This document shows positions 4,145 to 23,030 of a stretch of DNA of 26,381 nt, one piece after another. The notes below the pieces were generated by a model that was given only the letters and a program-made list of their open reading frames with translations, had not been told where the DNA came from and did no database searches. Origin of the DNA: a virus; IMG/VR virus record IMGVR_UViG_3300007351_000576, positions 1 to 26,381 of that record; one strand, given 5' to 3'. Position numbers and translations under genes: made by a program. Within the stretch, counting starts at the first letter, position 1, and the number at the start of each line of letters is the position of its first letter.

Positions 4145-4486
4145 ATGAAAATGTTCGATCCAGAAAAACTAAGCAGAAGGGATAAAAGAATAATGCAGGC
4201 ATTACTGTATTTTTATCCAAGAAAAAGAAGTGCATTCCATATTTATGAGTACATTTCAAAGTTTAATCAAAAAAGTGGAGTAAAGAATCCAAAAGCTCTC
4301 GGTCACATATTATCTCGATTTCCAGTCAAGGCATCACTCACCGTATTTCAATCATATGTCGACAAGAATATCTCAGGAAGCAGGTTTGTAAGATTGTATG
4401 TTCTTGATGATTCCTTTGTAAAGAAATATTATAAAGAAAAAAACGGACTTCTTGTATTGGTTAAAAAAGAGTCTCCTAAAAAATAA
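4145..4486 (+). CDS. Basic winged-helix-like DNA-binding protein, putative regulator
   Basis: LSRRDKRIMQAL...SAFHIYEYI...NPKALGHILSRF followed by beta-wing-like segment ending VRLYVL; SD AGGAGGT at 4135-4141. Confidence 0.55.
   Translation: MKMFDPEKLSRRDKRIMQALLYFYPRKRSAFHIYEYISKFNQKSGVKNPKALGHILSRFPVKASLTVFQSYVDKNISGSRFVRLYVLDDSFVKKYYKEKNGLLVLVKKESPKK
4424..4443 (+). promoter_or_regulatory. Copy 1 of 20-bp conserved motif (candidate late promoter), upstream of portal gene
   Basis: AAATATTATAAAGAAAAAAA, 1 mismatch to copy at 12931; lies in the 3' end of the winged-helix ORF, 50 nt before ATG 4494. Confidence 0.5.
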
Positions 4487-4493
4487 CTGCTGA

Positions 4494-6536
4494 ATGAACA
4501 TGGAGAATGAAAACAAAGCTTTGATGGTACTCTCCAAAGTAAATGAGGGAGTAAGGCAAACAGCCACGACAATTGATTACAGTAGTGTAAACTATTCAAA
4601 ACTTGAGAATATATACAAAACAGATCAGCTTGTATTTCAAGCAATCAATATCATAAGCACATTCGCAATATCCAAAGGATATGAATACGTTCTTTCTGAA
4701 AGCACTGATGAAAATATAGAGATGAAAGATAAGATTATAACACTTGACAATTCTGTTGGACTTCCAAAACTATTGACGGATATTGTTAGACATCTGCACA
4801 TTTATGGAAATGCTTATCTTGAGATTGTTTATTCAAGAACTGATAAAAAGAAAGTTGTAGGTCTTGCATTAATTGATCCAAAGACAATCGCTTTCAAGAA
4901 GAAAAGCACAGGAGAATTGGATCTTGACGAAAGTGGGGGTATCACAGGGTTTGTTCAGACGGTAAATGCGAAGAAAATAGATCTTACCCCAGAACAAGTA
5001 ATTCATTTCAGGATAAATACGATTGCTGATTCTCTAACAGGCACGGGTGTAATTGAGCCATTAGCCAAAATTATAGAAGCTAAACGAAACATAGAGATAG
5101 GACTTGCAGAAGCAGTGTACCGTCATGGATTTCCACAATTTCATGTAAAGCTTGGAGATAGTGAACATCAACCAACAGGAGATCAAGTAACCGAAGAATC
5201 AGAGAAGTACAAGCGGATAAATTCTAAATCAGAATTCGTTACGCCCTATTATTATGACATTAAAGTATTGGAAGCTCCAGGACTAAAAGGTGGAGAAAGT
5301 TATCTTAAATATTTCATAGACCAGATTGTTGCAGGGACAGGTGTTCCTCAAACAATTCTCTTAGGAAGCGGAGAATATAGCAATAGATCATCATCAGTTT
5401 CTCAGCAAGAAAACTTCTTTTTATACATCGCAGGAATTCAGAGTCTTGTTGCAGAAACGCTGCACAAAGAATTATTCACGAAAGTAATTGGACTTGACGA
5501 ATGTCCTGTATTTATGATCTTTAATTCATTACAAACTAAGTCAGATCTTGAACTTGCACAAGAGCGAGAGATTTATCTGAAATATGGCGTTTTAACTCCT
5601 GATGAAGTCAGGCAGGATATGGGCTTAGAACCTATTTCTACACCCCCCAAGGATGAGCAACCCTTTCCTGATCAGTCAGGAGACTTTTTTTCTCAATTCC
5701 TAAATGATAAGGATTTGATGATAACTCCCGACACTGACTTTCATTTCAAAATAACAGAAGAACTTGATTTTGGAGGGGTACTCAAAGAATTATCACTTCC
5801 CATAAGGTCAAGATTCATCGCAGATCAGCAAATACTAACTCATAAGATCAATAAAGTAATGGATAAGGCAAGATCTAAGATAATCAAAGAAATAGACTCC
5901 AACACTCAAGATGAGAATCAATCAATGGCAAGAGAAGATATTCTTATTGATTCTGAACTTCTAGGACCTGAAAGAGATGCACTTGTTGCTGCCATATTCA
6001 TCGATTCTAAGAAGAAATTCAAACAAGGAATCAAACTGGGAGAGAATTTTATCAAGAAACAATATCCTCAAGTTGCAGGAATAAAAGTCAAAAGCACAAT
6101 TAACGAACAAGCTATCAGAGCTCTTGATTTACGATCCAGTCAATTGGCCAATAAAGTGAACGAGGATCTTCTTAATGCCACGCAAATAGCAATACGTGAT
6201 GGCATAATGGCCAGGAAAGGAGCAAGACAACTAAAAGAAGACATCGAGGCTATCTTTGAGAAATACGGTGGTGCTGCTGACAGATTTAACAGCATAGGAA
6301 CAAGAGCAGAACTCATCGCAAGAACAGAATTACAGAGAGCATTTATTGAGGGTAATATTCAATCTTTCAAAGAACTTGGAGTTGCTAATTTGCAAATGTC
6401 AGTAAATCCTGATGCCTGTGAGCAATGCATTGAATTAGCATCTCAAAATCAAAATACTTCTATTCATTTATCCGATGGAATTATTCCTGTTCATCCACGA
6501 TGCAGATGTGGGTGGGTTGTTAATATGATGAAGTAA
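4494..6536 (+). CDS. Portal protein fused to C-terminal Mu gpF / SPP1 gp7-like head morphogenesis domain
   Basis: Portal motifs HLHIYGNAYLEIV, VIHFRIN...GTGVIEPL, GVLTPDEVRQDMGLEP; then MuF motifs RAELIARTELQRA, CEQC, PVHPRCRC in one uninterrupted frame. Confidence 0.9.
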   Translation: MNMENENKALMVLSKVNEGVRQTATTIDYSSVNYSKLENIYKTDQLVFQAINIISTFAISKGYEYVLSESTDENIEMKDKIITLDNSVGLPKLLTDIVRHLHIYGNAYLEIVYSRTDKKKVVGLALIDPKTIAFKKKSTGELDLDESGGITGFVQTVNAKKIDLTPEQVIHFRINTIADSLTGTGVIEPLAKIIEAKRNIEIGLAEAVYRHGFPQFHVKLGDSEHQPTGDQVTEESEKYKRINSKSEFVTPYYYDIKVLEAPGLKGGESYLKYFIDQIVAGTGVPQTILLGSGEYSNRSSSVSQQENFFLYIAGIQSLVAETLHKELFTKVIGLDECPVFMIFNSLQTKSDLELAQEREIYLKYGVLTPDEVRQDMGLEPISTPPKDEQPFPDQSGDFFSQFLNDKDLMITPDTDFHFKITEELDFGGVLKELSLPIRSRFIADQQILTHKINKVMDKARSKIIKEIDSNTQDENQSMAREDILIDSELLGPERDALVAAIFIDSKKKFKQGIKLGENFIKKQYPQVAGIKVKSTINEQAIRALDLRSSQLANKVNEDLLNATQIAIRDGIMARKGARQLKEDIEAIFEKYGGAADRFNSIGTRAELIARTELQRAFIEGNIQSFKELGVANLQMSVNPDACEQCIELASQNQNTSIHLSDGIIPVHPRCRCGWVVNMMK

Positions 6537-6550
6537 GATTTTTGGCAATC

Positions 6551-6558
6551 TTTATAAA
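6551..6558 (+). promoter_or_regulatory. Archaeal-type TATA box for the lipoprotein gene
   Basis: TTTATAAA in a very AT-rich 74-nt intergenic gap; G-rich SD-like GGGGGGGA at 6597-6604 before ATG 6611. Confidence 0.5.
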
Positions 6559-6610
6559 TAATTTCGATTATATTACTTAAATACTCAATTTAATTAGGGG
6601 GGGATAAATT

Positions 6611-7669
6611 ATGAAACAAGTAATCGCTATCATATGTTTGATTCTTGTAGTTTTTATGGTTGGATGCTCGGCACCAACAGCACAAGATCAAAAGACAACT
6701 GAACAAACAACAAACACTGCTCCAACTCAAGAGACAAAAACTCAAGATACAGGGATTATTAACAAAGTCATCGACTCATTCTCATCAGATGCATCAAAAC
6801 TTGAACGAGATTTCAAAGCAATGAATGATGAAAATCAAACTTTCTTCACAAATGTTCAAATAAGTAAAGATGGTCAAGATATAAAAATGGACTTTACAGT
6901 GACACCTAATGCAACATCCAAAATGATCTTAAATATATTCACTCTCGGAATAAGCATAAAGACTTACAACGTAACACAAGGCTTTGAGAATCTAAAAATC
7001 AATTATTTAAATGACAAGAAACAGATTCTTGGTTCTATGACTATCCCTAAAAAAGCAATAAAAGACGTAGCTGATTACTCTGCAACAAATAAGGATGCAG
7101 ACTTTATGGACAATCCTTATGTAGAAGCATTTTGGAAAATATCTCAAAGAATGTATGATGAATCCGTGCCAGAATTAATTCCTGCATCAATGGCTGAAGG
7201 AATGTTTGGTGGATTTGGGTCAGATGCAGATGACATTGCAGATGCATTAACTAAGACAGTAACCCATTTAGAAATTGATTGCAACTATGCAAAGAATTGG
7301 GATGCAGATGCTGACGATGATGGAATCACTTACTCGGTTAAACCATTAGCTGCAGACGGCACAGTAGTTCCTATTGAAGGATCTTTTGATACCAAAGTGT
7401 ATGAGAAAGTACAAACTGACAATTGGGATTATGTAAAAGGAAAACTATTATACACCCAAAATGGCGATTTAAAAGGTCAAGACAGATTACAATATTTTGA
7501 TACATGGGATGGATATAGTATTCAACTTGCATGGGATGATGTCGAACCATTCATGGCTTCAAGTAGTAATTATGGAATTATGTATGTTACATATACTGAC
7601 TTAAATGGCAAATCATTTGAAGCTAAAACTGGGGAAGACTCATTTGGCGGATGCCAATTAAGAGAATAA
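6611..7669 (+). CDS. Secreted lipoprotein, accessory (moron-like) gene
   Basis: MKQVIAIICLILVVFMVGC signal peptide with lipobox Cys, Thr/Gln-rich linker, acidic NWDADADDDG motif; flanked by its own TATA-like and T-rich signals. Confidence 0.85.
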   Translation: MKQVIAIICLILVVFMVGCSAPTAQDQKTTEQTTNTAPTQETKTQDTGIINKVIDSFSSDASKLERDFKAMNDENQTFFTNVQISKDGQDIKMDFTVTPNATSKMILNIFTLGISIKTYNVTQGFENLKINYLNDKKQILGSMTIPKKAIKDVADYSATNKDADFMDNPYVEAFWKISQRMYDESVPELIPASMAEGMFGGFGSDADDIADALTKTVTHLEIDCNYAKNWDADADDDGITYSVKPLAADGTVVPIEGSFDTKVYEKVQTDNWDYVKGKLLYTQNGDLKGQDRLQYFDTWDGYSIQLAWDDVEPFMASSSNYGIMYVTYTDLNGKSFEAKTGEDSFGGCQLRE

Positions 7670-7697
7670 TTCTTTTATATTTTTTTACTTCTTTTTT
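7670..7697 (+). terminator. Oligo-T terminator after lipoprotein gene
   Basis: TTCTTTTATATTTTTTTACTTCTTTTTT directly after the TAA; archaeal terminators are oligo-T tracts. Confidence 0.65.
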
Positions 7698-7709
7698 GTG
7701 CAATACCCT

Positions 7710-7729
7710 AAATAATATTAAGAAAAAAA
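7710..7729 (+). promoter_or_regulatory. Copy 2 of 20-bp conserved motif (candidate late promoter), upstream of protease-scaffold-capsid genes
   Basis: AAATAATATTAAGAAAAAAA ending 15 nt before ATG 7745; no SD in the gap. Confidence 0.65.
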
Positions 7730-7744
7730 TAGAATTCTTCAGCT

Positions 7745-8365
7745 ATGGCTGAATTAGTTATCAAGGAAATTTACGAGTTCATCAACTCAGTAGAAACGAA
7801 AAAGGAAGATTCTAAGGAGATGATAGAGAACTTTCTCGCAAACAACAGCGTAACTCCTAAAATCAAATCACTTTCACGACAGCTTGAACACATACATCTT
7901 TCTGAATTTAAGATCCATCAAGTCCTTGCAGAAGGCTCAAACCTGAGGATATCGGGAATTGCAATAAGTGAAGGCACATGGAATGGCATATTCTATCCCG
8001 CAGAAGAACTTGAAAAAGCATATATTGGTCTTGGAAACAAACCTTTGAGAATAGATCACTCAACCAGCACGAGAGACATCGTTGGAAAAGTAATCAAATC
8101 CACATGGATAGTTCCAAAAAAATGGATAGAATTTGAAGCAATTGTAACCGATGGGGATATAATTCAGAAACTTCTGAACAATCTCATCGAATCTGTGAGT
8201 GTTGGTGTGTTGATAGATAATGTCGAGGAGAATGGAGTCCAAATAGCTCGCAATCTCGAATTTAAAGAATTAAGTCTTGTTGATGATCCTGCATGCAAAG
8301 ATGCAAGAATCAACCCGATAGAAAATGGAGGCAATGATCAAAATGGCGGAAGTCAAAGAAATTGA
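7745..8365 (+). CDS. Prohead (capsid maturation) protease
   Basis: ISGIAISEGTWNG, KPLRIDH (catalytic His candidate), SVSVG (catalytic Ser candidate), FKELSLVDDPAC; position between portal and capsid. Confidence 0.85.
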   Translation: MAELVIKEIYEFINSVETKKEDSKEMIENFLANNSVTPKIKSLSRQLEHIHLSEFKIHQVLAEGSNLRISGIAISEGTWNGIFYPAEELEKAYIGLGNKPLRIDHSTSTRDIVGKVIKSTWIVPKKWIEFEAIVTDGDIIQKLLNNLIESVSVGVLIDNVEENGVQIARNLEFKELSLVDDPACKDARINPIENGGNDQNGGSQRN

Positions 8366-8804
8366 ACAGGCTAAAACCCTATTGAAGAAAGCCGCTGAAG
8401 AGCTTGCAGCAAAAGAACAAGATATTGCAATGCTAAATCAGGAAATATCTTCAAAGGACAAACTTATCTCGGAACTGACAGCAAAACACGAGAAGTTGAT
8501 GAAAGATTTTGAAACAGTAACAACTGAACTCAAGCAGATAAAACAAGCTGCAAGAGACATCGCATTGAAAGAAATAATCGATGCTGAAGAAAAGCTTGGA
8601 GTGCTTGAAACAAACAAAGAGCAAAGACTCAATGAACTGAGAGCACTTGACGACAAGGGCGGATTTGAAGCATATGCAAAGCAGACAAAAAGAATGCTTG
8701 ATCTACACAAAAGCATAGGCGACAGAAAGTCCCTGATCAACAATTCAAACCAGGCAACTGACAAGCGAAAAGAAATTGCATCGGTACTGGGAATGGAGAA
8801 CTAA
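8343..8804 (+). CDS. Coiled-coil scaffolding protein
   Basis: Long charged heptad-rich helix; position between protease and capsid genes; ATG 8343 preferred over 8325/8334 from spacing to GGAGG at 8327-8331. Confidence 0.7.
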   Translation: MAEVKEIEQAKTLLKKAAEELAAKEQDIAMLNQEISSKDKLISELTAKHEKLMKDFETVTTELKQIKQAARDIALKEIIDAEEKLGVLETNKEQRLNELRALDDKGGFEAYAKQTKRMLDLHKSIGDRKSLINNSNQATDKRKEIASVLGMEN

Positions 8805-8817
8805 GAGGTGAATCAAA

Positions 8818-9192
8818 ATGACATATGATATCATGATTGACGACGGAAAGAATCCAAGCATGCTCGTTGCAACAGGAAACCTTACCAAAGGACAGCTTGT
8901 TGGACTAACAGTCCAGCCAGCATCTGCACAAGCAGACATACTTGGAGTCAGCCTAAAAGACACTCCACAAGGAAACCCTGCATCAATTGGATGCATCGGA
9001 ACATTCTATGTGGATGTATCAGTCGCAGCTTCAGCAACCCTGAATGTCGGGGATGAACTTGAAGTCAAAGACAACGCAACACTGCAAGCAAAAAACACAG
9101 GAGTCGCAGTGGCCAAAGCATACGAGAAGATAGACAACTCGACTGGCGGTAGCCCAGTGACAAGGAAGATTCCTGTAAAAATCGTGAAATAA
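8818..9192 (+). CDS. Capsid cement/decoration protein, DUF2190-like
   Basis: ATGNLTKGQLVG...ILGVSLKD...G...LNVGDEL...VAVAKA pattern; directly upstream of capsid gene; SD GAGGTGA. Confidence 0.7.
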   Translation: MTYDIMIDDGKNPSMLVATGNLTKGQLVGLTVQPASAQADILGVSLKDTPQGNPASIGCIGTFYVDVSVAASATLNVGDELEVKDNATLQAKNTGVAVAKAYEKIDNSTGGSPVTRKIPVKIVK

Positions 9193-9208
9193 GAGGAGGA
9201 GAGGCAAA

Positions 9209-10015
9209 ATGAAAACAATGCAAGAACTATTTTCGAGCCAAGACGCTGCACCTCTCATCAAGGAAGTCATCGACTCCAACGTGTTTAAGGTTGCAGGCAG
9301 AGAAAGAGTAGGAAGAAAGATCGTGAAACTCATAACCTTGAGTGAAGGATCTGCACTGAAAATCCCTAAGATGGGAGCAGGACAAGCATATGTGATTCCA
9401 GAACTGGGAGCAATCCCTATGGATGTCAGCACTTTCAACGAAGTTGTTGTAACACCATATAAGATCGGAAAAGCGTTTGCTATTCCAAAAGAAGCCATCG
9501 AAGATTCTGCCTTTGATGTTGTCAGATTGAAAGCTGACATGGCTGCAGAAGATGTGGCAAGAAAAGAAGATGAGGAAATCTTCCGAGTATTGATGAACAC
9601 ATCGAATACAGTCTCGCCAAAGACTGCGGGACAATTTGTTCAGGAAGACGTTGTCACCCTGAGAAATGGAGTAAATAGGCACAGCTACAAAGCAGCATGG
9701 CTTGTTGCACATCCTGATGACTTGGCAAAGCTTGAAAAAGATCTTATCAGTAAGGGCTATAAGGCATTTGACAGGCTTGATGAGACAGGAATCATAGGAA
9801 ATGTTGCTGGACTTCAAGTAGTTGAAACCACTGCAGTAGAACCAGGCACAATTCTTGCTTTAGACAGCAGAGCTTGTGTATTGGTTGAAAGAAGACCTCT
9901 CTCAACAGAGAACTTCACAGATCCATTGCGAGATCTTGCTGCTGGAGTAACAATTACTGAAAGAGTAGCACCTGCAGTACTTGATGACAATGCAGTCTCA
10001 AAGATGACCTTGTAA
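9209..10015 (+). CDS. Major capsid protein, compact HK97 fold (268 aa)
   Basis: E-loop AYVIPELGAIP, VTPYKIGKAFAIPKEAIED, spine helix MAAEDVARKEDEEIF, WLVAHPDD, NVAGLQVVET; strong SD GAGGAGG. Confidence 0.88.
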   Translation: MKTMQELFSSQDAAPLIKEVIDSNVFKVAGRERVGRKIVKLITLSEGSALKIPKMGAGQAYVIPELGAIPMDVSTFNEVVVTPYKIGKAFAIPKEAIEDSAFDVVRLKADMAAEDVARKEDEEIFRVLMNTSNTVSPKTAGQFVQEDVVTLRNGVNRHSYKAAWLVAHPDDLAKLEKDLISKGYKAFDRLDETGIIGNVAGLQVVETTAVEPGTILALDSRACVLVERRPLSTENFTDPLRDLAAGVTITERVAPAVLDDNAVSKMTL

Positions 10016-10039
10016 AATAGGTCATCATATTATTTTTTT
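10003..10039 (+). terminator. Hairpin plus oligo-T terminator/attenuator between capsid gene and its paralogue
   Basis: GATGACCT (10003-10010) is the exact reverse complement of AGGTCATC (10019-10026); the 8-nt loop holds the capsid stop codon; T7 run at 10033-10039. Confidence 0.65.
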
Positions 10040-10053
10040 ATAGGTGACTCTAC

Positions 10054-11453: not shown

Positions 11454-11456
11454 ACA

Positions 11457-11693
11457 ATGACCACAGTTCAAGATAAAATCACAGAAATAGAATCACTCAC
11501 TGAATACGTGAAGAACTCACTAATAATTCACAGCATAGACTCGAGAGGCACCGTAATAAAATGGCTTATGGACAATCAAGGAGTTGCTGAGAGAAAGAAG
11601 ATCTTCATAGAACTTAATCCTGCAGAATCAGAAATGGCTCTCGAATCAAGAACTGCAATCAGTACAATAGATATAGAGCCTCCAGGTGATTAA
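11457..11693 (+). CDS. Hypothetical protein, 78 aa
   Basis: ORF fills the gap between coupled genes on the coding strand; no motif recognised. Confidence 0.65.
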   Translation: MTTVQDKITEIESLTEYVKNSLIIHSIDSRGTVIKWLMDNQGVAERKKIFIELNPAESEMALESRTAISTIDIEPPGD

Positions 11694-11694
11694 G

Positions 11695-11859
11695 ATGGCA
11701 AATTGGAAGTACAAAGTAATTCACAAAAGAGTCAAAGAATTATCAGAAGACCAGCTTAATGATCTTGGCAATAATGGATGGGAACTAATTTTCATGAGTC
11801 AATTATGGAACGGCAAAATAATTGCCGTCTTCAAGAAAGAAAAAGTAGGAGGTACATAA
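11695..11859 (+). CDS. DUF4177-like small protein, 54 aa (not in ORF track)
   Basis: Manual translation MANWKYKVIHKRVKELSEDQLNDLGNNGWELIFMSQLWNGKIIAVFKKEKVGGT fits the WEYKV...LNxLGxxGWELV...FKR pattern; SD AGGTGA at 11684-11689. Confidence 0.72.
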   Translation: MANWKYKVIHKRVKELSEDQLNDLGNNGWELIFMSQLWNGKIIAVFKKEKVGGT

Positions 11860-11861
11860 AA

Positions 11862-12563: not shown

Positions 12564-12567
12564 GACA

Positions 12568-12936
12568 ATGGAAATCGAATCAGAAGACTTTGACAAGATC
12601 GTAGATTATGACATCGGAGTAGATGTAACTCTAATCAGAAAAAGCCAGACCATAGACTCAGACTACGGAAGCCTTGTTTCAAACTCTTTTCAGGAATATA
12701 TAATAAAAGCTGTATGGCAAGAAATTACAGGAAATGAAGAAAGTTTTAGGCCAGAGGGAGAATTCAAGATTGGAGACATCAAATGCTACACTAAAAATGC
12801 ATATGGATCAATAATTCCAACAGCAGAAACAGATACAATCAAGAAAGACAATAAAGAATACAAAATTGTCAAATCAACAGTGAAAACAGTAGGGGAAAAC
12901 GTGATTTATCGTCTTCTTCAACTAAGGCTGAAATAA
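12568..12936 (+). CDS. Head closure/stopper protein (SPP1 gp16-like)
   Basis: GVDVTLIRK...IKAVWQE...GDIKCYT...DTIKKDNKEYKIV beta-barrel pattern; start 12568 preferred, 12535 possible. Confidence 0.7.
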   Translation: MEIESEDFDKIVDYDIGVDVTLIRKSQTIDSDYGSLVSNSFQEYIIKAVWQEITGNEESFRPEGEFKIGDIKCYTKNAYGSIIPTAETDTIKKDNKEYKIVKSTVKTVGENVIYRLLQLRLK

Positions 12937-12950
12937 TATAAAGAAAAAAA
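12931..12950 (+). promoter_or_regulatory. Copy 3 of 20-bp conserved motif (candidate late promoter), upstream of tail genes
   Basis: AAATAATATAAAGAAAAAAA ending 15 nt before ATG 12966; no SD in the gap. Confidence 0.65.
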
Positions 12951-12965: not shown

Positions 12966-13328
12966 ATGGTAAAGATCACAGTAATCAGTCCTGATCTTGC
13001 ACGATTAGGAAAGAAAATGAGTGATCTCAAAGATGATGGTTTCAAAAAAGAAGTTCATGAAAGCATCAGAAAAGTACTCCCTGTAATACACAGGGATGCA
13101 TACGAGAACTGTCCAAAAGACACAGGAATACTATCAGCGTCACTCAATGTTGGTTTTGAAGATGAAACAACAGGATACATTGCTGACGGAGTGTTTTATG
13201 GTGTATTCCAAGAAGAAGGGACAAGATTTATCGAGCCAAAACATTTCATGAGAAATGCAGTGAACAAGAATTTTCCAAGAGTGGAAAATGAAGTCACAGC
13301 ATCAATCAAGAAGAAATTCAATCAGTAA
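12966..13328 (+). CDS. HK97 gp10-like tail component
   Basis: CPKDTGILSASL, YGVFQEEGT, PKHFMRNAV are typical HK97 gp10-family motifs. Confidence 0.85.
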   Translation: MVKITVISPDLARLGKKMSDLKDDGFKKEVHESIRKVLPVIHRDAYENCPKDTGILSASLNVGFEDETTGYIADGVFYGVFQEEGTRFIEPKHFMRNAVNKNFPRVENEVTASIKKKFNQ

Positions 13329-14652: not shown

Positions 14653-14654
14653 TT

Positions 14655-14981: not shown

Positions 14982-14998
14982 TATACATCCTTCTGAGG
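14951..14998 (+). promoter_or_regulatory. Programmed -1 ribosomal frameshift signal
   Basis: A_AGT_TTT at 14951-14957, 6-nt spacer, perfect 10-bp stem CCTCAGAAGG (14964-14973) / CCTTCTGAGG (14989-14998). Confidence 0.65.
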
Positions 14999-15124
14999 CA
15001 CTATCAGATGAGCTGGGAACAAATACATTCCTTGACAATGCCACAGTTTTACTTCATGATATCAGCATACAATGAAGAAATCAAGGAGAAAAACAAGCAG
15101 ATCAAGAAATCAAGGAAGAAATAA
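14951..15124 (+). CDS. Frameshift extension of tail chaperone (lambda gpT analogue, -1 frame; not in ORF track)
   Basis: -1 frame open from 14951 to TAA 15122-15124: KFSKSSEGKLIYILLRHYQMSWEQIHSLTMPQFYFMISAYNEEIKEKNKQIKKSRKK; WEQIHSLT resembles gpT-type motifs. Confidence 0.75.
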   Translation, partial: KFSKSSEGKLIYILLRHYQMSWEQIHSLTMPQFYFMISAYNEEIKEKNKQIKKSRKK

Positions 15125-15158
15125 TTCCTGCGAGGACGGGGTAAAACACTATGGGTAA

Positions 15159-18100
15159 ATGTCAATGGTTGAATCAGTCAGAATTACTTTCAAGGGCGAA
15201 GACAATGTCAGTCCTGCACTGACAAGAATACATTCAGGAATAAATAGTCTTAGCTCCGGCGTTGATTCTGTTGGCAAAACATTCTCTGATTTCAATAAGA
15301 AACTTCTCATAGGATTTACAGCAATAGCAACAGCAGTCACAGCTATTGGAATAAAAGCAGTCAAGAGTTTTGGAGAATTCGACAAACAAATAAGACGAGT
15401 CCAGGTGCTTGCTGGAGGCACTGAAGAAGACTTCAAAAAACTTGCTGATACAGCTTTCAAGCTTGGATCAAGTACTGCTTTCTCTGCACAAGAAGTTGCA
15501 CAAGCATTTGAAGAATTTGCAAAGGCAGGATTTAATGTAAACCAGATTTTAAGAGCATCAGAATCTACTCTTGGACTTGCAACTGCAGGAAATGTTTCAT
15601 TGGCAGAAGCAGTCAGCATCTCAGTTGCAGCAATGAATTCATTCCAGCGAGATGCAGAGGATATGAATGGTGTTGCAACAGTTCTCACGACTACATTCAC
15701 CAACTCAGCCCAAAGCTTGCAAGATCTTGGAGAAGCATTAAAGATTGTCGGACCTCTTGCATCAAGTCTTGGAATAAGCCTTGAAGAAGTAAGTGCTGCT
15801 CTTGGAACACTTGCAAATGTAGGTATTAAAGGAAGTCTTGCAGGAACATCATTAAACCAGGCATTATTACAGCTACTTAGCCCGACTGATGATTCTGCAG
15901 AAGCAATGGAGAATCTTGGAGTAAACTTCTTTACATTAAATGAAGCTGGCCAAGCAGCAAAAGCAACAATCCAAGCAACAAGAGATGAATTCAGCTCATT
16001 AAAAGACAAAGTCAGACAGAGTGATATAGAACTTGCACTACTTGGATCAAAACTTGCAGAAGCCAAAAGACAAATGAAATCATTTGGTGATGAAGCAAAA
16101 GCTCCTGATAAATTATCAAGTTCACTTAGTGGATTGCAGTCAGCTTTTGATGAATCAAGACTAAAAAATACTGAATTAAGAGAATCACTTGAAGCGCAAG
16201 AAAAGACGCTTCAAGATCTAAGAAAGCAAGTTACTGAGGGACAGCAGGAATTTGTTGGATTAAGAGATGCAACTAAACAACTCAATGATGCATTCCAAGA
16301 AATAGATGCATCAACAGTTCAGAAAGCCACAACTCTTGTCAAAATCTTTGAAGTAAGAGGAGCAAGAGCATTTCTGACACTTACAAAAGAACTCGATAAC
16401 TTCAATGAAATATTCAAAACAATCGCATCAACAGAGATAAGAACTGAACTTCTTGACGAATCGAGTCTTAAAGCTGCACTTAGCGCTCAGGATAGCTTCT
16501 CACGACAGTTCGGAATTACATTTGAGAAATTAACTCAGAATGCGACAAAAGTACCCGAAGGCATTGATGAAGCATTAAAGAATTCAAAACTTGACGAGAG
16601 AGCAAGAGATATATTTAGAAATATGAGAAGTGAAGTCAATGCATTAAAGCTTGACAGCGAATCAATAGAAGCTGTTCTTTCTGATTTCCTACCTCTTGAT
16701 TCCGTCAAAGATTTCAGAGAGATCATACAATTAACAGATGCTGACTTTGAAAATTTTCTATTAAGCATCAATGCCTTAAATCAAGATGCACAAACCCTGA
16801 ACAAAACACTTCTTCAAAATCTTGGAAGTGCATTTGAAGAATTACAAGATACTGTAACAACTGCATTTATCAGAATAGGTGGAGCAATAGCCCAAAGACT
16901 CAATTTATCAAGCATAGTAAAGAATATTCAGCAAGCAGTAGAAGACTTCTCAACAGGAGATGGAATAGAAAAACTTGCTGATAAAATAGTAAATGTCATA
17001 AGGCTCATTCAGTCTTTCTTGAAAGGAGTCGGAGAAGGATTCAAACAAGTATTCACACCAGACATTCTTGACAGATTAAAATCAGCATTTGGCACTGCTT
17101 TCTCATCTATGCAAAGCAATGCAGAAGGCTTTGGAAATGTGGTTGGTAGAGTTCTTGGAAGTGTGGTAAAAGGTGGAGCAGAACTCATCACCAGAGTCCT
17201 TAATAGCAATCTTATTGAGAATGCAAGCAATATGTTTTCTCGTCTTGGAAATGTTCTTGAAAAAATAGGACCTACTGTTGGTGCTGTTGCAGCTGGATTT
17301 GTATTATTAACTCCGATTCTTACACCAATAATCTATGTCGTAAGCAAGATTTTCAGTGGATTTGGATTACTCATCAATATCTTGTTATCTTCTGGAAAAG
17401 CTATTGGTGCTCTTGCTGGAGGAACAGCAAAACTCACCACTGGACTTGCTGGAATAACTGCAAAAGTCACAGGAGTAGGAAGTGCAGCTACAACAGCGAC
17501 AGCTACAACAGGAGGATTTCTTGCAAAACTTGGAACAATTGGATCAAGCATTGGAAGCATATTCACTGCAATAGGCAGTGCTCTCGGAGTAAGTGCAGGA
17601 GTAGCTGCTGCTATTGTTGTGGCCATAATAGGAACAATCATCGGGTTCGTAAATCAAGTGAGACAAAACTTCTTAGGACTCGGAGATGATTTCAGGACAA
17701 TATTTGGATTCATCGGAGGAGTTCTTACAGCAATAGGTGCAGGAATCAAAGAAAGTCTTATAGATATAGGAACTCTCATTAAACCAATTTGGGAAGGCAT
17801 CAAAGAAACTTTCAATGGACTCGGTAAAATACTCGCAAGTCTTGTCGCAGTTGTTGTCAAACCATTTGCAAATAGCATAAGAGATGCAGGAGATCAGGGG
17901 TTCAACACATTTGAAATAATCAAGAATGCAGTATCTTTCCTATTTACTCCTCTAAAACTTGTCTTGACAATAGTTGGAAGTGTACTCAAAGCTATTGGAG
18001 CAATACTCAACTTTGTAGGAGATCTCATTGGAGGAATTGTTGAATTTGGTTTTATTGTTGCAGATGCTTTCAAGAGATTTAAGGATGAAGGATTCTCCGC

Positions 18101-19268
18101 ATTTAATGAAGTTGGAGAAGCAGCTAAAAGAATCGGAGTGTCTATTCTGACATCATTTGTCAGTGCAATAGACTCAATCATAAACATATTTATCGACTTA
18201 ATCAATGAACTTATCAAAGTAGTAAAGAAGATTCCTCTTCTGAATAAAGCTATTGGAGAAGATTTCAAGTTAGACAAGAATGTACTCGGAAACCTGACTG
18301 GATTCACAAAAGATGCACAAAAAACAACTGTATCTCAAACCAATGTCCAACAAAAATCCGTATCCGTCACATCGTATGCAAAAGCAAGTTCTTCAGCACT
18401 TGCTCAAGAGAGTGCATCCGTAACAAAAAGTGCTGTTCAACCATTCAAGCAGGCCACGATAGATGTATCTGATTTAGGAATTCAGGCAGCATCGAATTTT
18501 ACGATGCCTTTCAAAGATCCTGTAACATCTGCACAATCAAAAGCAGATGTCCTCTCAGTATTCCCAACAAATGCACAAGCATCTCAGATGGGAAGAAACT
18601 TTGGAGCTGCATTCTTCACAGGATTATCAGATGGAATGAAAGCCACTGCTGCAGTATTTGACTCGAGCATCAAGCCAATCTTTGCGAGTATGATTTCCTC
18701 GCTTAAAGAATTCATTGCAGTATTTATCAGAGATTTGTATGTCTTGAGAATAGTTCCTGCATTCATGCAGAATCTCGTCTTGAAAATTCATACTGCTTTT
18801 GTTTCAGGATGGCATCACATGTTTCTTGCAGTGATTGATGTTACTGAAAAAGCAATGAATGGAATCCTGACAAATCTGGGAAAGTTTTACAATCAACTTG
18901 TAAGTGTCGTCAATAAGTTAATTGCAGAATATAATAGAGCAGCAGATATATTGTCAAGAGATATTACAAGGACAACATACAAAACTGTAACTGACAAAAA
19001 AGGCAATACTAAAAGAGTTGCTCAAACTGAGACTTTATTCAAAGGAGTCAATGTTCAGAGATTGAATCAGTTTTCTCCAGTGCAATTAACTCCTCTAAAA
19101 CTTGAAAGGCCAGCACTTCCACAAGCACCAAGTGTTGCTGTAGATGCAGGAGGATTTAGCGTAAACATACAGAACTTCAATGCAGGATCTGAATCTGACA
19201 AACAGAAGTTATTCTCTGAAATTGATGCATACATAGCAAGACAACTCGGACAACTGGTGAGAATATGA
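15159..19268 (+). CDS. Tail tape measure protein, TP901-type core domain
   Basis: FDKQIRRVQVLAG...FSAQEVAQAFEEFAKAG...LGTLANVGIKGSLAGTSL; long Ala/Gly/Ile-rich helical region; 1369 aa. Confidence 0.95.
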   Translation: MSMVESVRITFKGEDNVSPALTRIHSGINSLSSGVDSVGKTFSDFNKKLLIGFTAIATAVTAIGIKAVKSFGEFDKQIRRVQVLAGGTEEDFKKLADTAFKLGSSTAFSAQEVAQAFEEFAKAGFNVNQILRASESTLGLATAGNVSLAEAVSISVAAMNSFQRDAEDMNGVATVLTTTFTNSAQSLQDLGEALKIVGPLASSLGISLEEVSAALGTLANVGIKGSLAGTSLNQALLQLLSPTDDSAEAMENLGVNFFTLNEAGQAAKATIQATRDEFSSLKDKVRQSDIELALLGSKLAEAKRQMKSFGDEAKAPDKLSSSLSGLQSAFDESRLKNTELRESLEAQEKTLQDLRKQVTEGQQEFVGLRDATKQLNDAFQEIDASTVQKATTLVKIFEVRGARAFLTLTKELDNFNEIFKTIASTEIRTELLDESSLKAALSAQDSFSRQFGITFEKLTQNATKVPEGIDEALKNSKLDERARDIFRNMRSEVNALKLDSESIEAVLSDFLPLDSVKDFREIIQLTDADFENFLLSINALNQDAQTLNKTLLQNLGSAFEELQDTVTTAFIRIGGAIAQRLNLSSIVKNIQQAVEDFSTGDGIEKLADKIVNVIRLIQSFLKGVGEGFKQVFTPDILDRLKSAFGTAFSSMQSNAEGFGNVVGRVLGSVVKGGAELITRVLNSNLIENASNMFSRLGNVLEKIGPTVGAVAAGFVLLTPILTPIIYVVSKIFSGFGLLINILLSSGKAIGALAGGTAKLTTGLAGITAKVTGVGSAATTATATTGGFLAKLGTIGSSIGSIFTAIGSALGVSAGVAAAIVVAIIGTIIGFVNQVRQNFLGLGDDFRTIFGFIGGVLTAIGAGIKESLIDIGTLIKPIWEGIKETFNGLGKILASLVAVVVKPFANSIRDAGDQGFNTFEIIKNAVSFLFTPLKLVLTIVGSVLKAIGAILNFVGDLIGGIVEFGFIVADAFKRFKDEGFSAFNEVGEAAKRIGVSILTSFVSAIDSIINIFIDLINELIKVVKKIPLLNKAIGEDFKLDKNVLGNLTGFTKDAQKTTVSQTNVQQKSVSVTSYAKASSSALAQESASVTKSAVQPFKQATIDVSDLGIQAASNFTMPFKDPVTSAQSKADVLSVFPTNAQASQMGRNFGAAFFTGLSDGMKATAAVFDSSIKPIFASMISSLKEFIAVFIRDLYVLRIVPAFMQNLVLKIHTAFVSGWHHMFLAVIDVTEKAMNGILTNLGKFYNQLVSVVNKLIAEYNRAADILSRDITRTTYKTVTDKKGNTKRVAQTETLFKGVNVQRLNQFSPVQLTPLKLERPALPQAPSVAVDAGGFSVNIQNFNAGSESDKQKLFSEIDAYIARQLGQLVRI

Positions 19269-19648
19269 AACTCTTAGATCAAAACCAAACACAAACATTG
19301 CTCGAATTCAACAATGTAGACAGAGCAATTACAAAGCTTGAAACAAAGACAAAAGTGATCTGGATAGAACACGAAATTCCAAATAAGAGAGGTAACATCA
19401 GACATTTTCTTGGATCAAGCGACGGAGATGTTGTGTTATCAGGAAAACTTCTTGGAAGTCATGCAACAAAAGCATCGAATAAAGGAATCATACGAAGTCT
19501 CACACTCAATGGTACAATTCTCTATCTTGATACAGAAGGCTATGAGGATGATCTCAATGGAAGATATGTCATCACAGACATAGATATTCCTGAACAAGGT
19601 GGAGAGCCATGGGAATTTACAATCGTACTGACAGAATTTAGTAACTGA
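19265..19648 (+). CDS. Distal tail (Dit / P2 gpU-like) protein
   Basis: EHEIPNKRGNIRHFLG...VVLSG...GRYVITDI...FTIVLTE pattern; ATGA overlap with tape measure stop. Confidence 0.65.
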   Translation: MKLLDQNQTQTLLEFNNVDRAITKLETKTKVIWIEHEIPNKRGNIRHFLGSSDGDVVLSGKLLGSHATKASNKGIIRSLTLNGTILYLDTEGYEDDLNGRYVITDIDIPEQGGEPWEFTIVLTEFSN

Positions 19649-19655
19649 TGAAAAC

Positions 19656-22208
19656 ATGAATGAGTCGCATAAACCAAAATTTAAAGCATTCCTTGACGTA
19701 GGAAATGGTTGGCAAGAAATAAGTAGTTATGTGACTAAATGGGACTCAAATCTTGGAGTTACATCGAGAACAAATACTGCATCATTGAATGTCGACTATA
19801 ATGCTTTACTCATTCTGCAACAATTAGATTCATCAGCAAAAATAAAAATTCTTGCAGGATATGATTCCAACAATCTCAAACTCATATTTGATGGGCTTGT
19901 TCAGAGCATAAAAAAAACAAATACGAAAGAAGAATTTGATTTGGAAGCAGAAGATTTTGCATCATTCATGCTAAATAGATTTATCACAGATGCATTTGCT
20001 CAAGAGAAAGCTGTCGATATAATCAAAGATATACTTTCTGAAAAGATTCCCGAGTACACTTGGGATATTGATTCTTTCGATGATAATGATTTCATTGTCG
20101 AGAAAATAGCTTTTGAAGATAAGCCAATTATCGAGATCATCGAATATCTTGCAGAACTTATTGGATTTGATTTTTGGGTGACAAGTGATGGAGAGGGATT
20201 AATAAAATTCCATTGCAAGATAAGAAAAAGTATAGAATCAGATTTTGTTTTGCAGAGAGGAGTTAATCTCAAGACACTGGTTTTTATTGAAGATAAAAGC
20301 CAGATGGCTAACAGAGTAATTGTTGAAGGAGATAAAAGAGAATTTGCAAAAACACAAAGATTTACAGGTAATGGAGTAACAAAAGAATACAGTCTCGTCT
20401 TCAAACCACATAACACAAGAGTGAGTGTTAATGGAGTAAATCTTATTGGTGGTGTTGAGGGAATTTCTCAAAATCCAGAGTTCTTTGTTGATTTCTTCGA
20501 GAAGAAAGTAACTCTCGTCAATACTCCTGCATTAATGGATCAAGTTGTAATCGATTACACCTATGATATTCCGATTAAAGTGGAAGCGACTGACTTTGCA
20601 TCAATAAAAAAATATGGAGAGAAAGTTCAATTTATCAAGAATAAAAATATTAAAGAGAAATCAGAAGCCAAGAAGTATGCACGAGAATTCATTAAACAAT
20701 ACGGCAAACCTCTTTTCATAGCTGAGGCAGATGCTCCTGCAAGTGTTGATTTTAATGTTGGAGAAGTCATTACTGTCAAAGATCTTTCAAAAGGAATAAA
20801 TCACTCTATGCAAGTTTTGGAATGCTCTTATTCTTTCTCTAAAAGAGAAGGATTTACTTCATCTCTTAAACTTGCACAAACAACACAAACAGGATCTAAC
20901 ATTCTAAAAGATATCATCTTGAGATTAAAACAAGTTGAGGAATTATTGAAAGGTGATGTTGAGGTAGTTACAAAACTCACAACATTTGAAGACACGATAA
21001 CAATCAGAATTAAGAGGATAACTGCAAAAAAAAGATCATTACTTCAAGGGTTTACATGGAGCAAGGAAGGAGTATGGAATCATAATGATTGGGGAGTTGA
21101 TAATACTTCATCATTTCAAACATTCTTCGAATATGGCGACAAGGATGTAGTCTATAAAGACACTTCTTACTTTGCAGAGCATGAGTTAAATCTTGAAGTA
21201 ATTTTCAGTCCTGAACTAAATAAGATTCTCGTATTCAGTTACAATGAATGGACTCAAAATGCATACTCTGGAAAAACAGAATTCACAATCCCGACACCAA
21301 CAATTTTGAAAGAAGTAATTGACAACATAAAACAAGATCTTGATAATTTATCGTTTGGATTATCACTGCATTCCAATTATAGTACTGCAACAATTTGGAG
21401 TTTGAATGGAGGAAGTCCACCATATTGGTCAAAGATTGGATTCACAAAGACAACTCCTGCAGGAGCTCCATCACAGAGAGTATTCGATAAAATTGCATAT
21501 GAGAATATAGGAATTACTGAGCAGAATTCCTTTGAATTATATCTCAAAGAAGATTACTCTTTGCATGTGCCTATGTGGAGTATGAATTATGTGTGGAGCA
21601 GAACAGGAATCGAAGAAACCAGTCAAATACCTGTTTATGACAAGTCAGAGATTGATCAATTACATGCCAATGACAAGTTATCTCTTGCACAGGAATTCTT
21701 GAGTAACTTTGATAACGAATTCATCTACAGCAGAGCATTATGGAATAAGAAGCCAGTCATCGACTATGGACATACAGAAAATATTATCTTGAAAGAAATA
21801 AATGATTATCTTACAGCAGAAGACAGGACATCACTCAGATTCAACGAACTCGAGGATGGCTTCTTCTGGAGCGTAAGAGGATGGAGCAAAGACGACTGGG
21901 GAAATATTCCTAGAGGACTTGCACAGCAAGATATTCAGAACAGAACTGAATCATCAAGCATCGCATCATCAGACAAGATCTTTGCAGAACTCTCCTGGTC
22001 AGAACAGTTTAATGGATGGTCGCTGAAATATTGGAGCAAAAATGGCTGGGTAAAATTCCAACAAGAACAGCAATCAAGTACTTTCGACAAAACAGAAACT
22101 GAATCGTTGATTGTAGAAGAACTGATTGGAATTGAAAATATCAACTCGCTAAACAATCAGATTTCAGTCGTGAACACAAGATCAAAATGGAGTGAGGCAA
22201 CATGGTAA
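19656..22208 (+). CDS. Baseplate hub (Tal / T4 gp27-like) protein with Trp-rich repetitive C-terminal extension
   Basis: IKILAGY...LIFDGLV, AVDIIKDIL, IIEYLAELIGFDFWV, ANRVIVEG, SIKKYG, FNVGEVITV; C-terminal ~380 aa with recurrent WS..W clusters. Confidence 0.75.
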   Translation: MNESHKPKFKAFLDVGNGWQEISSYVTKWDSNLGVTSRTNTASLNVDYNALLILQQLDSSAKIKILAGYDSNNLKLIFDGLVQSIKKTNTKEEFDLEAEDFASFMLNRFITDAFAQEKAVDIIKDILSEKIPEYTWDIDSFDDNDFIVEKIAFEDKPIIEIIEYLAELIGFDFWVTSDGEGLIKFHCKIRKSIESDFVLQRGVNLKTLVFIEDKSQMANRVIVEGDKREFAKTQRFTGNGVTKEYSLVFKPHNTRVSVNGVNLIGGVEGISQNPEFFVDFFEKKVTLVNTPALMDQVVIDYTYDIPIKVEATDFASIKKYGEKVQFIKNKNIKEKSEAKKYAREFIKQYGKPLFIAEADAPASVDFNVGEVITVKDLSKGINHSMQVLECSYSFSKREGFTSSLKLAQTTQTGSNILKDIILRLKQVEELLKGDVEVVTKLTTFEDTITIRIKRITAKKRSLLQGFTWSKEGVWNHNDWGVDNTSSFQTFFEYGDKDVVYKDTSYFAEHELNLEVIFSPELNKILVFSYNEWTQNAYSGKTEFTIPTPTILKEVIDNIKQDLDNLSFGLSLHSNYSTATIWSLNGGSPPYWSKIGFTKTTPAGAPSQRVFDKIAYENIGITEQNSFELYLKEDYSLHVPMWSMNYVWSRTGIEETSQIPVYDKSEIDQLHANDKLSLAQEFLSNFDNEFIYSRALWNKKPVIDYGHTENIILKEINDYLTAEDRTSLRFNELEDGFFWSVRGWSKDDWGNIPRGLAQQDIQNRTESSSIASSDKIFAELSWSEQFNGWSLKYWSKNGWVKFQQEQQSSTFDKTETESLIVEELIGIENINSLNNQISVVNTRSKWSEATW

Positions 22209-22663
22209 ACCAAAAAGATATTCTAAAAGCAAAAGGAGAAGTAAAAATTCTCGTTGTAGACAAAGAAGGCAGAGTTATAAATTCACATACGATGAACAAG
22301 GTTGTGAATTTAGGCATAGAATCAATGCTTAAACACATCAATGGATCATACACGAGCCTGATCAATTATTTCAAGATAGGAACAGGAACAAATGCAACAG
22401 TTGAAGCAGACACAGGACTTCAAACACCTGTAAATTTCTCTACTGGAGTCCCAACCAAAGCATTTGACAGTGTTGGATATCCCTCAGTAAAAGAAGTCAA
22501 ATATCAATTAACTGTCGATTTTACTGAAGGCAATGGAAACACACTTTCAGAAATCGGAATGTTCTTCGCAGACAATAGAATGTTCTCAAGATTTACTCAT
22601 CAAGGCATCAATAAGACGAGCTACATCAAAATAGTCTATCAATACACAATAAAGATCGAGTAA
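22202..22663 (+). CDS. Tail-collar/baseplate protein, DUF3751-like, paralogue A
   Basis: NKVVNLG...YFKIGTG...DTGL...EGNGNTLSEIGMF...MFSR...INK pattern. Confidence 0.6.
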   Translation: MVNQKDILKAKGEVKILVVDKEGRVINSHTMNKVVNLGIESMLKHINGSYTSLINYFKIGTGTNATVEADTGLQTPVNFSTGVPTKAFDSVGYPSVKEVKYQLTVDFTEGNGNTLSEIGMFFADNRMFSRFTHQGINKTSYIKIVYQYTIKIE

Positions 22664-22668
22664 GAAAA

Positions 22669-23016
22669 ATGGTACTGACAAACACAGGAAAACAGCAACT
22701 ACTTGAAGCATTAAAGAGCCAAGTAACTCATTTTGCAATGGGCAGTGGACAGAATACAGATACTGAGTTTGCGACAAGTCTTGGCCAAGAAGTATTCAGA
22801 AAAGATGTCACAGACAAAACCATAGACCAAGAAACAGGTAGCATAGACTTTGAATGCTTTATCGGATCAAGCGAAGGAAACGGGAGCGATTTCTCAGAAC
22901 TTGGACTTCTTGATTCTCCAAGTGGAGGAACTCTGTTTGTTATCACCAATTTCCCTGCAGAGAATAAATCTGCATTACTCGAATGGCTAATTGATATTGT
23001 AATTGAAATAAAATAA
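22669..23016 (+). CDS. Tail-collar/baseplate protein, DUF3751-like, paralogue B
   Basis: LTNTGKQQL...THFAMGSG...TSLGQEVFRK...EGNGSDFSELGL...GTLF...ENK pattern. Confidence 0.6.
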   Translation: MVLTNTGKQQLLEALKSQVTHFAMGSGQNTDTEFATSLGQEVFRKDVTDKTIDQETGSIDFECFIGSSEGNGSDFSELGLLDSPSGGTLFVITNFPAENKSALLEWLIDIVIEIK

Positions 23017-23030
23017 CATAAAGAAAGAAA
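23011..23030 (+). promoter_or_regulatory. Copy 4 of 20-bp conserved motif (candidate late promoter), upstream of receptor-binding protein
   Basis: AAATAACATAAAGAAAGAAA ending 15 nt before ATG 23046; 2 mismatches to copy 3. Confidence 0.55.

Follow-up and report, generated by a model that had tools for sequence, protein, structure and literature searches.

The window (the whole stretch of DNA analysed, 26,381 nucleotides) comes from a tailed virus that is integrated in a tiny DPANN archaeon (Woesearchaeales) with a 1.3-Mb genome. Its structural region carries genes for a portal, for a 206-aa head protein with scaffold and capsid, for tail completion/Neck1 and further tail proteins, and for an 879-aa fibre-like protein that comes after a gene with a tail-fibre N-terminal domain. 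The gene labels of the original prediction are thus broadly right. That prediction placed a 20-bp motif at the boundaries of these blocks, and all four 20-mers are found at the predicted positions on the + strand; compared with copy 3, copies 1 to 4 have 1, 1, 0 and 2 mismatches, and copies 2-4 do end exactly 15 nt before an ATG (Table 1). Copy 1 is separated from the portal ATG (4494) by 50 nt. In copies 3 and 4, positions 4-6 (TAA) form the stop codon of the preceding gene, encoding a head-closure-like protein and ORF 22669-23016, respectively. Copy 4 is a variant: position 7 is C and position 17 is G.

Table 1. Coordinates of the motif copies and of associated features.
Feature	Position	Strand	Context
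113-aa conserved protein, predicted winged-helix-like fold	4145-4486	+	gene carries copy 1; candidate DNA-binding regulator
Motif copy 1	4424-4443	+	inside 3' end of the winged-helix-like gene (ORF 4145-4486)
Host-type consensus TATA box	6551-6558	+	inserted lipoprotein cassette (6611-7669); host BRE/TATA matrix score 15.6
T7 and T6 runs	7680-7697	+	oligo-T termination signals after lipoprotein cassette, just upstream of copy 2
Motif copy 2	7710-7729	+	15 nt before ATG 7745 of 206-aa head protein; scaffold and capsid genes next
T7 run	10033-10039	+	just after capsid gene
Motif copy 3	12931-12950	+	15 nt before ATG 12966, tail completion/Neck1
Motif copy 4	23011-23030	+	15 nt before ATG 23046, 879-aa fibre-like protein
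Motif copy 5	G000:C2:256218 = L003:15085-15104 (outside window)		14 nt before ATG of 81-aa ORF

The four copies reported are in fact five, the fifth lying outside the window. On both strands of the whole 1.3-Mb genome we identified only these five matches at ≤2 mismatches (0.1 are expected per genome, from ten first-order Markov simulated genomes), and all of them lie on the same strand within 37 kb of a single provirus. Equally good matches scattered over the genome, which would have spoken against the original prediction, are therefore missing outside the provirus at this threshold. Shuffles of the window hold 0.09 chance matches at ≤3 mismatches, and none of 100 shuffles reached four. Chance in A-rich DNA is rejected by the shuffled windows and the simulated genomes, and by the way in which the matches cluster on the provirus. 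Copy 5 has 25 identical bases in common with copy 2. Upstream of it dndB is divergent, so that no co-directional gene precedes it, and beyond the 81-aa ORF it precedes a C5 DNA methylase.

The 20-mer is retained at the corresponding gene junctions of related proviruses, whose capsid identity is 78-97%. At orthologous junctions the identity of the motif is 0.89-1.00, against 0.33-0.67 in the 40 nt upstream and 0.47-0.65 in the spacer, and the distance from motif to ATG is 14-16 nt at 20 of 20 junctions of the copy 2 to copy 4 types (8, 7 and 5 non-identical proviruses, respectively). At the copy 2 junction the spacing is 15 nt in all eight relatives, with a motif identity of 0.97 versus 0.33 upstream; at the copy 3 junction of seven relatives it is 14-16 nt, with 0.97 versus 0.51. 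The copy 4 variant recurs at the orthologous junction in G002 and G005 and also occurs in G315, and copy 1 is 100% identical in five diverged proviruses. The G followed by seven A that ends the motif (G+A7) is invariant over 25 junction instances, except for one A-to-G change in the tract at six, and is kept across hosts of different families. Two proviruses are uninformative for the copy 3 and copy 4 junctions. Homology of G001 to the window stops near 11,800. Tail-gene homologues were not found beyond that point, and G001 may therefore be a remnant lacking the tail module; L006 matches the window over ~2 kb of the capsid region only.

The motif is confined to this virus clade. In six other genomes, matches at ≤1 mismatch lie on contigs with a related capsid or winged-helix gene; the two exceptions, G004:C4 and G315:C40, are short contigs and possibly parts of the same proviruses as the other matches. 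A scan of viral contigs with the 20-mer gave 38 stretches and recovered three related contigs, the remaining stretches being single matches, eight of them on contigs of giant-virus MAGs. In G002, G004 and G005, further copies precede a small winged-helix gene. The original prediction described a late regulon of four morphogenesis units, and this description is not borne out: since copies also precede the 81-aa ORF with the C5 DNA methylase and the winged-helix gene of relatives, which are non-structural, the regulon extends beyond morphogenesis, and neither "late" nor "four units" is established.

DNA homology to the closest relatives (G001 and V12) resumes exactly at 7710, the first base of copy 2, and the homology block shared with G004 begins at 12928, 3 nt before copy 3. 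Immediately before copy 2 the proviruses differ in their cargo, which measures 0 to 12 kb. These boundaries could mean that the motif is a recombination linker, a patch kept at module boundaries for the exchange of head, tail and cargo genes among related viruses. We regard this as most improbable, as 20 bp is short for homologous exchange and as a linker would not account for the constant spacing from the ATG, the bias to one strand or the host-promoter register (see below). Insertions tolerated only upstream of a promoter would yield the same block boundaries.

Copy 1 encodes an invariant peptide, KYYKEKN, and synonymous variation occurs in 1 of 7 motif codons versus 34 of 41 codons outside (p=0.0008). 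Copy 1 is thus under constraint at the DNA level, with its synonymous sites frozen. A_AAA_AAC lies in register within it, but the -1 frame appears to stop within a few codons, and a -1 frameshift site was rejected. The 113-aa protein itself had no match in Pfam or PHROGs; its 20 homologues are 60-93% identical, and none of the 20 has a Pfam domain. Their longer C-terminal tails imply a larger distance from copy 1 to the portal gene in relatives. A metagenome scan with an alignment of the protein gave one short locus among the matches listed. The AlphaFold model (pLDDT 81) has three helices and a beta hairpin in a helix-helix-helix-hairpin topology, and its top Foldseek matches are all winged-helix (wHTH) DNA binders, although weak (E 0.02-0.2, TM 0.45-0.5). 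The protein is a candidate DNA binder.

To place the motif, we compared it with the promoters of the host. In leaderless archaeal promoters the TATA octamer lies ~22-24 nt upstream of the start point, which is the start codon. In the host, a strict pattern locates the first base of the octamer at -29/-30 relative to the start codon of 205 genes, and a BRE/TATA matrix finds the same register in 454 of 1241 upstream regions (score >6); the host is thus massively leaderless. These promoters have an A-rich BRE, 55-67% T at -11/-10 and 86% pyrimidine at -1. The AT-rich octamer of the virus can be placed in three registers, starting at -31 to -29 from the ATG, against the host mode of -29/-30. Position -1 is T in most viral copies, and TTT occupies -11 to -9 in copy 3 and in most junctions of the copy 2 and copy 3 types in relatives. 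They therefore resemble leaderless promoters in the position of the octamer, in the pyrimidine at -1 and purine at +1 around a predicted start point, and in the A/T-rich sequence near -10. It follows that the 15-nt spacing, taken originally as the main evidence for something special, is the general leaderless architecture of the host.

The motif differs from host promoters in its sequence. On the host matrix copy 1 scores best (7.1) and the others score 1.4, 3.6, -0.3 and 1.0, roughly the 56th-64th percentile when every upstream region of the host is scored; the host consensus MRAAA-NN-TTTAWAWA is not matched by the motif, despite the score of copy 1. Ordinary AT-rich upstream DNA matches the matrix at least as well, so the octamer is called TATA-like by analogy. 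The A-tract after it had been described as foreign to standard promoters, and indeed only 2 of the 454 host promoters have seven A at the equivalent place. With four of five copies at background on the host matrix and a distribution limited to the clade, the proposal of a virus-specific sequence is supported. The host has one TBP and one TFB, and no virus-encoded TBP or TFB was found in the provirus.

Other signals in the region are consistent with transcription units that start at the motif. The intergenic T runs of at least six in the window are limited to those in Table 1; the run after the capsid gene is probably an attenuator inside the copy 2 unit. Besides the promoter of the inserted lipoprotein cassette, the host matrix finds no host-type promoter on the + strand of the structural region, and its one other + strand match in the window is intragenic. 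No other candidate promoter element was found between copy 5 and the 81-aa ORF. Taken in silico, the host leaderless register, the oligo-T before copy 2 and the position of copy 5 as sole candidate element before its ORF agree with the promoter-like behaviour that was proposed.

The Shine-Dalgarno (SD) context of the downstream genes is mixed. Genes after copies 2 and 3 lack an SD as predicted, and so does the portal gene, whereas the gene after copy 4 has one (GAGGTGA); the statement that most genes have an SD is nearer to about half. The motif could act in RNA, as an unstructured ribosome landing site or translation-enhancing leader for SD-less genes within a long polycistronic mRNA. Its fixed distance to start codons fits this, as does the unstructured nature of the stretch: none of the five contexts folds better than shuffled sequence (z -0.5 to +0.8). 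This result, together with the lack of a matching Rfam family, also rules out a structured RNA or a known RNA family. We consider a signal in RNA very unlikely, given the terminators directly before copy 2, the lack of a co-directional gene upstream of copy 5, the gene after copy 4 with its own SD, the 50-nt distance from copy 1 to the portal, with a larger one implied for relatives, and a distance that equals the TATA-to-ATG register of the host precisely.

We think it likely that the motif is a promoter class specific to this virus clade, which acts as a core promoter, gives rise to leaderless mRNAs and is probably controlled by a viral DNA-binding protein. Promoter function is inferred from position and conservation, and activity, start points, timing and factor are predicted in the same way. 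The host RNA polymerase would read each copy together with the one TBP and the one TFB that the host possesses. The predicted layout, counted from the ATG, is an A-rich BRE-like triplet at -35 to -33, an AT-rich TATA-like octamer at about -31 to -24, the G and seven A at -23 to -16, a T-rich stretch near -11 to -9 and a pyrimidine at -1, with a presumed start of transcription at, or adjacent to, the A of the ATG. Translation of the leading gene in each block would then use a leaderless mRNA, as it does for about a third of host genes, which fits the absence of an SD after copies 2 and 3.

Five units could be read from the motif: from copy 1 the portal, with a predicted start at ~4459 and a leader of ~35 nt; from copy 2 the 206-aa head protein, scaffold and capsid; from copy 3 the tail genes; from copy 4 the fibre-like protein; and, outside the window, from copy 5 the 81-aa ORF and the C5 methylase. 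The proposal of near-leaderless transcripts agrees with the register of host leaderless promoters; it is not true of all units, because an SD follows copy 4 and the transcript from copy 1 would have a leader that lacks one. Because the motif is private to the clade and below the host consensus, a DNA-binding protein encoded by the virus probably controls expression, as an activator or as a repressor in lysogeny.

The same elements could alternatively form an ordinary constitutive variant, for which host TBP and TFB suffice and whose invariance reflects selection for one strength or recent copying. Host-like traits are the register, the AAA that resembles a BRE, the T-rich sequence around -10 and the pyrimidine at -1; in addition, copy 1 scores well, a few host promoters are partly similar (e.g. 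C1:40780 and C4:63240) and the identical bases in copies 2 and 5 suggest copying. Against this stand the background scores of the other four copies and the near-absence of G+A7 from host promoters despite its invariance over hosts of different families; moreover, particle genes of a provirus must stay silent in lysogeny. On balance we find a constitutive variant rather unlikely.

For a promoter class under viral control, the 113-aa protein is the obvious candidate factor. G002, G004 and G005 have a small wHTH gene after a motif copy; this genome lacks it, so it cannot be the universal factor. Tentatively, and with considerable doubt, we suggest that G+A7 could be the docking site of the 113-aa protein, which would make the below-consensus TATA active for the single TBP and TFB of the host. 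The protein would then be a virus-encoded late activator, with feed-forward via copy 1 into the portal and particle genes.

To our knowledge, transcription has not been studied experimentally in Woesearchaeales or in the viruses that infect them. The motif is a precise, conserved and testable predicted promoter for a DPANN virus clade, and the host-wide analysis indicates that about a third of host genes start leaderless from a BRE/TATA at -29/-30. With the motif as a guide, transcription units and cargo genes can be located in related proviruses, and the motif also offers a defined DNA target for testing the small, predicted winged-helix proteins of these viruses.

The viral promoters would share with archaeal leaderless BRE/TATA promoters the ATG register, the position of the A-rich BRE, the T-rich -10 region and the pyrimidine/purine initiator, but at conserved positions their octamer differs from the TTTAWAWA of the host, and G+A7 is not a host feature. 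By analogy only, they recall the late promoters of beta- and gamma-herpesviruses, where a TATT-type box is read with a viral TBP-like protein (PMC6541308): in both, a non-consensus TATA-like box would mark late structural genes and need a viral protein, although system and hosts are unrelated and a TBP-like gene is absent here.

The principle is not new, as virus-specific promoter elements are known from Sulfolobus rudiviruses. Promoters of SIRV1 and SIRV2 (Rudiviridae) have a virus-specific consensus element, and many are weak with basal factors alone; the winged-helix protein Sta1 binds the core promoter region and activates them (Kessler et al.; PMC1635249). The likeness, an extra conserved viral promoter element next to TATA and BRE that is scarce in host promoters (here G+A7), is one of kind and not homology. 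Rudiviruses infect Sulfolobus and Sta1 is host-encoded, whereas here a tailed virus resides in a DPANN archaeon, the candidate factor is virus-encoded and the motif is known from sequence alone. In SIRV2 and other archaeal viruses, early and anti-defence genes also carry consensus regulatory sequences, with the wHTH protein Aca8 (PMC11065993). There too a near-identical promoter-containing repeat stands before many genes, is kept better than the genes themselves and has a proposed wHTH binder. Those cores are the strongest BRE/TATA consensus of the host and precede small single accessory genes for immediate expression (PMC11065993); the motif described here differs in its below-consensus core and its place before portal, head, tail and fibre blocks.

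The 20-base, A-rich motif was originally described at four structural-module boundaries of the window, and all four copies are found there on the + strand, each within two mismatches of copy 3 (table). The gap of exactly 15 nt claimed for three of them holds for copies 2, 3 and 4. Dinucleotide-preserving shuffles of the window give a chance expectation of 0.09 matches at up to three mismatches. Nor are matches scattered through the host genome: a search of both strands (1.3 Mb) returned five at up to two mismatches, all on one strand and within 37 kb, and ten simulated genomes yielded a mean of 0.1. The fifth copy lies beyond the four known ones and has 25 bases in common with copy 2. No other candidate promoter was identified between it and its 81-aa coiled-coil ORF. 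It also has no co-directional gene upstream, because the neighbouring dndB is on the opposite strand and probably starts behind its own host-type TATA box. In copies 3 and 4, motif positions 4-6 (TAA) are the stop codon of the upstream gene; copy 1 has an in-frame TAT at this site, and its ORF therefore reads on.

Positions of motif copies and other features of the provirus (L003, region to the right of the window)
Feature	Position	Strand	Remarks
Copy 1	4424-4443	+	1 mismatch to copy 3; inside ORF 4145-4486, 50 nt upstream of the portal ATG
Copy 2	7710-7729	+	1 mismatch; ATG of 206-aa head protein at 7745
Copy 3	12931-12950	+	0 mismatches; ATG of tail completion/Neck1 at 12966
Copy 4	23011-23030	+	2 mismatches; ATG of 879-aa fibre-like protein at 23046
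Copy 5	C2:256218 (L003:15085-15104)		14 nt before ATG of 81-aa coiled-coil ORF; C5 DNA methylase gene next
Leu105 codon (TTG)	4457-4459		at predicted copy 1 start point: T at -1, G at +1
Cassette promoter	6551	+	host-type, of inserted lipoprotein cassette; host matrix score 15.6
Second host-matrix match		+	inside a gene
Cargo gap	6537-7709		portal to copy 2
T7 run	within 10016-10053		right after capsid gene, before SD of capsid paralogue
Dnd and other genes	L003:8923-15071 and 392-8506		DndB-E, cysteine desulfurase; Cdc6-like, CARF-HTH, PD-(D/E)XK, helicase, SMC-like
dndB start	L003:14978		probable (not 15071); TATA box at 15008

The window corresponds to G000:C2:214753-241133 of an archaeal (Woesearchaeales) genome of 1.3 Mb and 38% G+C, and its nearest capsid relatives come mostly from Woesearchaeota/Nanoarchaeota (DPANN) MAGs. 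It is the packaging, head and tail portion of a tailed provirus, encoding a terminase, a portal fused to a MuF-like domain, a scaffold, an HK97-type capsid, a tail completion protein, a tape measure and fibre-related proteins. Host genes to its left (exosome operon, Rpo subunit) stop about 5.5 kb short of the window. To the right, the element goes on with a Cdc6-like gene, nuclease and helicase genes, a Dnd cluster, a C5 methylase and integrases; several provirus genes there have host-type consensus promoters. Two "Woesearchaeales tailed proviruses" that carry Dnd and DISARM systems, including the record behind locus L007, are described in a 2024 paper, which makes no mention of promoters or TATA boxes.

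We surveyed host promoters over the whole genome using crude ORF calls, a strict pattern and then an iterated matrix. With the strict pattern, 205 genes have a TATA-like octamer beginning at -29 or -30 relative to the start codon, against 1-16 genes at each adjacent position; the matrix recovers 454 such sites (score above 6) in 1241 upstream regions. Their consensus reads MRAAA (an A-rich BRE), two bases and TTTAWAWA, with a T-rich spot at -11/-10 and a pyrimidine at -1 in 86%, and tRNA promoters have the same box. This placement of BRE/TATA in about 450 of the 1241 regions indicates that the host is massively leaderless. SDs of at least 5 nt are seen at only about 150 of its genes. The viral motif falls in the host register: its AAA occupies -35 to -33, and an AT-rich octamer lies at -31 to -29. 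Most copy 2- and copy 3-type copies also have TTT at -11 to -9, and position -1 is usually T. From this agreement in register, its fixed spacing can be read as marking a promoter of the host's leaderless type. The spacing was originally put forward as the main evidence; it does point to a promoter, but is in itself ordinary, being the host rule.

What sets the viral element apart is its sequence. Copy 1 scores 7.1 on the host BRE/TATA matrix and the others 1.4, 3.6, -0.3 and 1.0, the level of ordinary AT-rich upstream DNA. The A-tract is indeed non-standard: seven A at its position occur in only 2 of the 454 host promoters, and at least six of the seven in 16. Particle genes have no other promoter candidate on the + strand of the window, since the only two host-matrix matches are the cassette promoter and an intragenic site. 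T7 and T6 runs lie directly upstream of copy 2, where incoming transcription should thus stop and a new start is needed. The only other intergenic oligo-T is the T7 after the capsid gene, probably an attenuator setting the ratio of capsid to downstream head proteins. The motif could instead be an RNA-level translation signal or a set of recombination linkers, but both leave the terminators before copy 2, the divergent site of copy 5 and the host-register match unexplained; RNA folding of the motif and an Rfam search returned nothing.

The comparison took in ten loci whose capsids are 78-97% identical and, in a second step, entire provirus regions of six genomes; the same 20-mer is present at the same junctions. 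Across the four copy types, identity is 0.89-1.00 in the motif, 0.33-0.67 in the 40 nt upstream, 0.47-0.65 in the spacer and 0.38-0.65 at the CDS start. Motif end and ATG are 14-16 nt apart, mostly 15, at all 20 orthologous c2-c4 junctions (those of copies 2-4), and the spacer sequence varies. Even the variants are kept: four other proviruses likewise have T at position 6 in their orthologues of copy 1, and C7/G17 of copy 4 is found again at the matching junction of G002 and G005. G315 has this variant too. All but two of the matches with at most one mismatch in the six genomes lie on a contig bearing a related capsid or winged-helix gene, and the two, on short contigs, may be part of the same proviruses. 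Homology to the closest relatives is lost after the portal and returns exactly at base 7710. This gap is a cargo hot spot: it measures 35 nt in the related viral contig V12 (L012) and 1.2 kb here, where it holds the lipoprotein cassette, and reaches about 8, 8.6 and 12 kb in G001, G004 and G005. The G001:C6 provirus (L024, L025; 97% capsid identity) loses homology near window position 11,800; tail-gene homologues were not found downstream, and this provirus may be a remnant lacking its tail module. Some public labels of these relatives appear wrong: a "Cloacimonadota bacterium" contig agrees with a Woesearchaeota contig in both capsid match and motif contexts (L009, L010 versus L011), and another relative is in a MAG labelled Methanosarcinales, likely through mis-binning or mislabelling.

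Copy 1 lies within a coding sequence. This 113-aa ORF is a genuine gene: its product has 20 homologues sharing 60-93% identity, and no Pfam domain was found in the protein or its homologues. The motif-encoded KYYKEKN is invariant in 19 of 19 aligned proteins and the tail behind it is highly variable. Among amino-acid-invariant codons of five diverged DNAs, synonymous variation affects 34 of 41 outside the motif versus 1 of 7 inside (Fisher p=0.0008), the sole varying base being outside the 20-mer. Synonymous sites are frozen, and the DNA itself is therefore under selection. Leu105 is the only nearly invariant residue of the tail. Transcripts from the predicted start would have a leader of about 35 nt ahead of the portal gene, which has no SD. 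The structure predicted for the 113-aa protein (pLDDT 81) comprises three helices and a beta hairpin, and its best Foldseek matches are all winged-helix DNA binders (PadR, forkhead, Orc1/Cdc6, RTP), at E-values of only 0.02-0.2. The gene occurs in every related provirus whose contig extends to that region and in 5 of 401 sampled genomes, and the clade spans hosts from several families of the order. A homologous 70-aa fragment (P0020) is called "translation elongation factor EF-Ts" by one source, almost certainly a mis-annotation.

We propose that each copy is a core promoter for the host polymerase giving leaderless mRNAs, or in copy 1 a short-leader mRNA. The host has a single TFB and a single TBP, and neither was found in the provirus. 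A factor-independent promoter is a rival reading. The core falls short of the host consensus and yet does not vary across the clade, from which we infer that a viral DNA-binding protein switches it. Such a protein could act either as an activator or, bound over the core, as a lysogeny repressor, and the modelled 113-aa protein is a reasonable candidate. G002 (L017), G004 (C4, L023) and G005 (L020) have a further copy, about 42 nt ahead of a conserved 69-79-aa gene that looks like another small winged-helix regulator and is absent from the G000 genome. A "late" class is plausible for the particle genes, but a regulon limited to morphogenesis, as first envisaged, does not hold: it takes in the methylase unit as well and, in some relatives, the small regulator gene.

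The nearest known parallel is found in the rudiviruses SIRV1/2, whose promoters have a virus-specific consensus element. Many of these promoters are weak with basal factors, and Sta1, a winged-helix protein, activates by binding in the core region (PMC1635249). A second analogue is the set of conserved sequences that regulate early anti-defence genes of archaeal viruses; unlike the motif here, these use the host's strongest core and stand before small accessory genes (PMC11065993). A private promoter element is thus of a known kind, and this one is the first that we could find for a DPANN virus.
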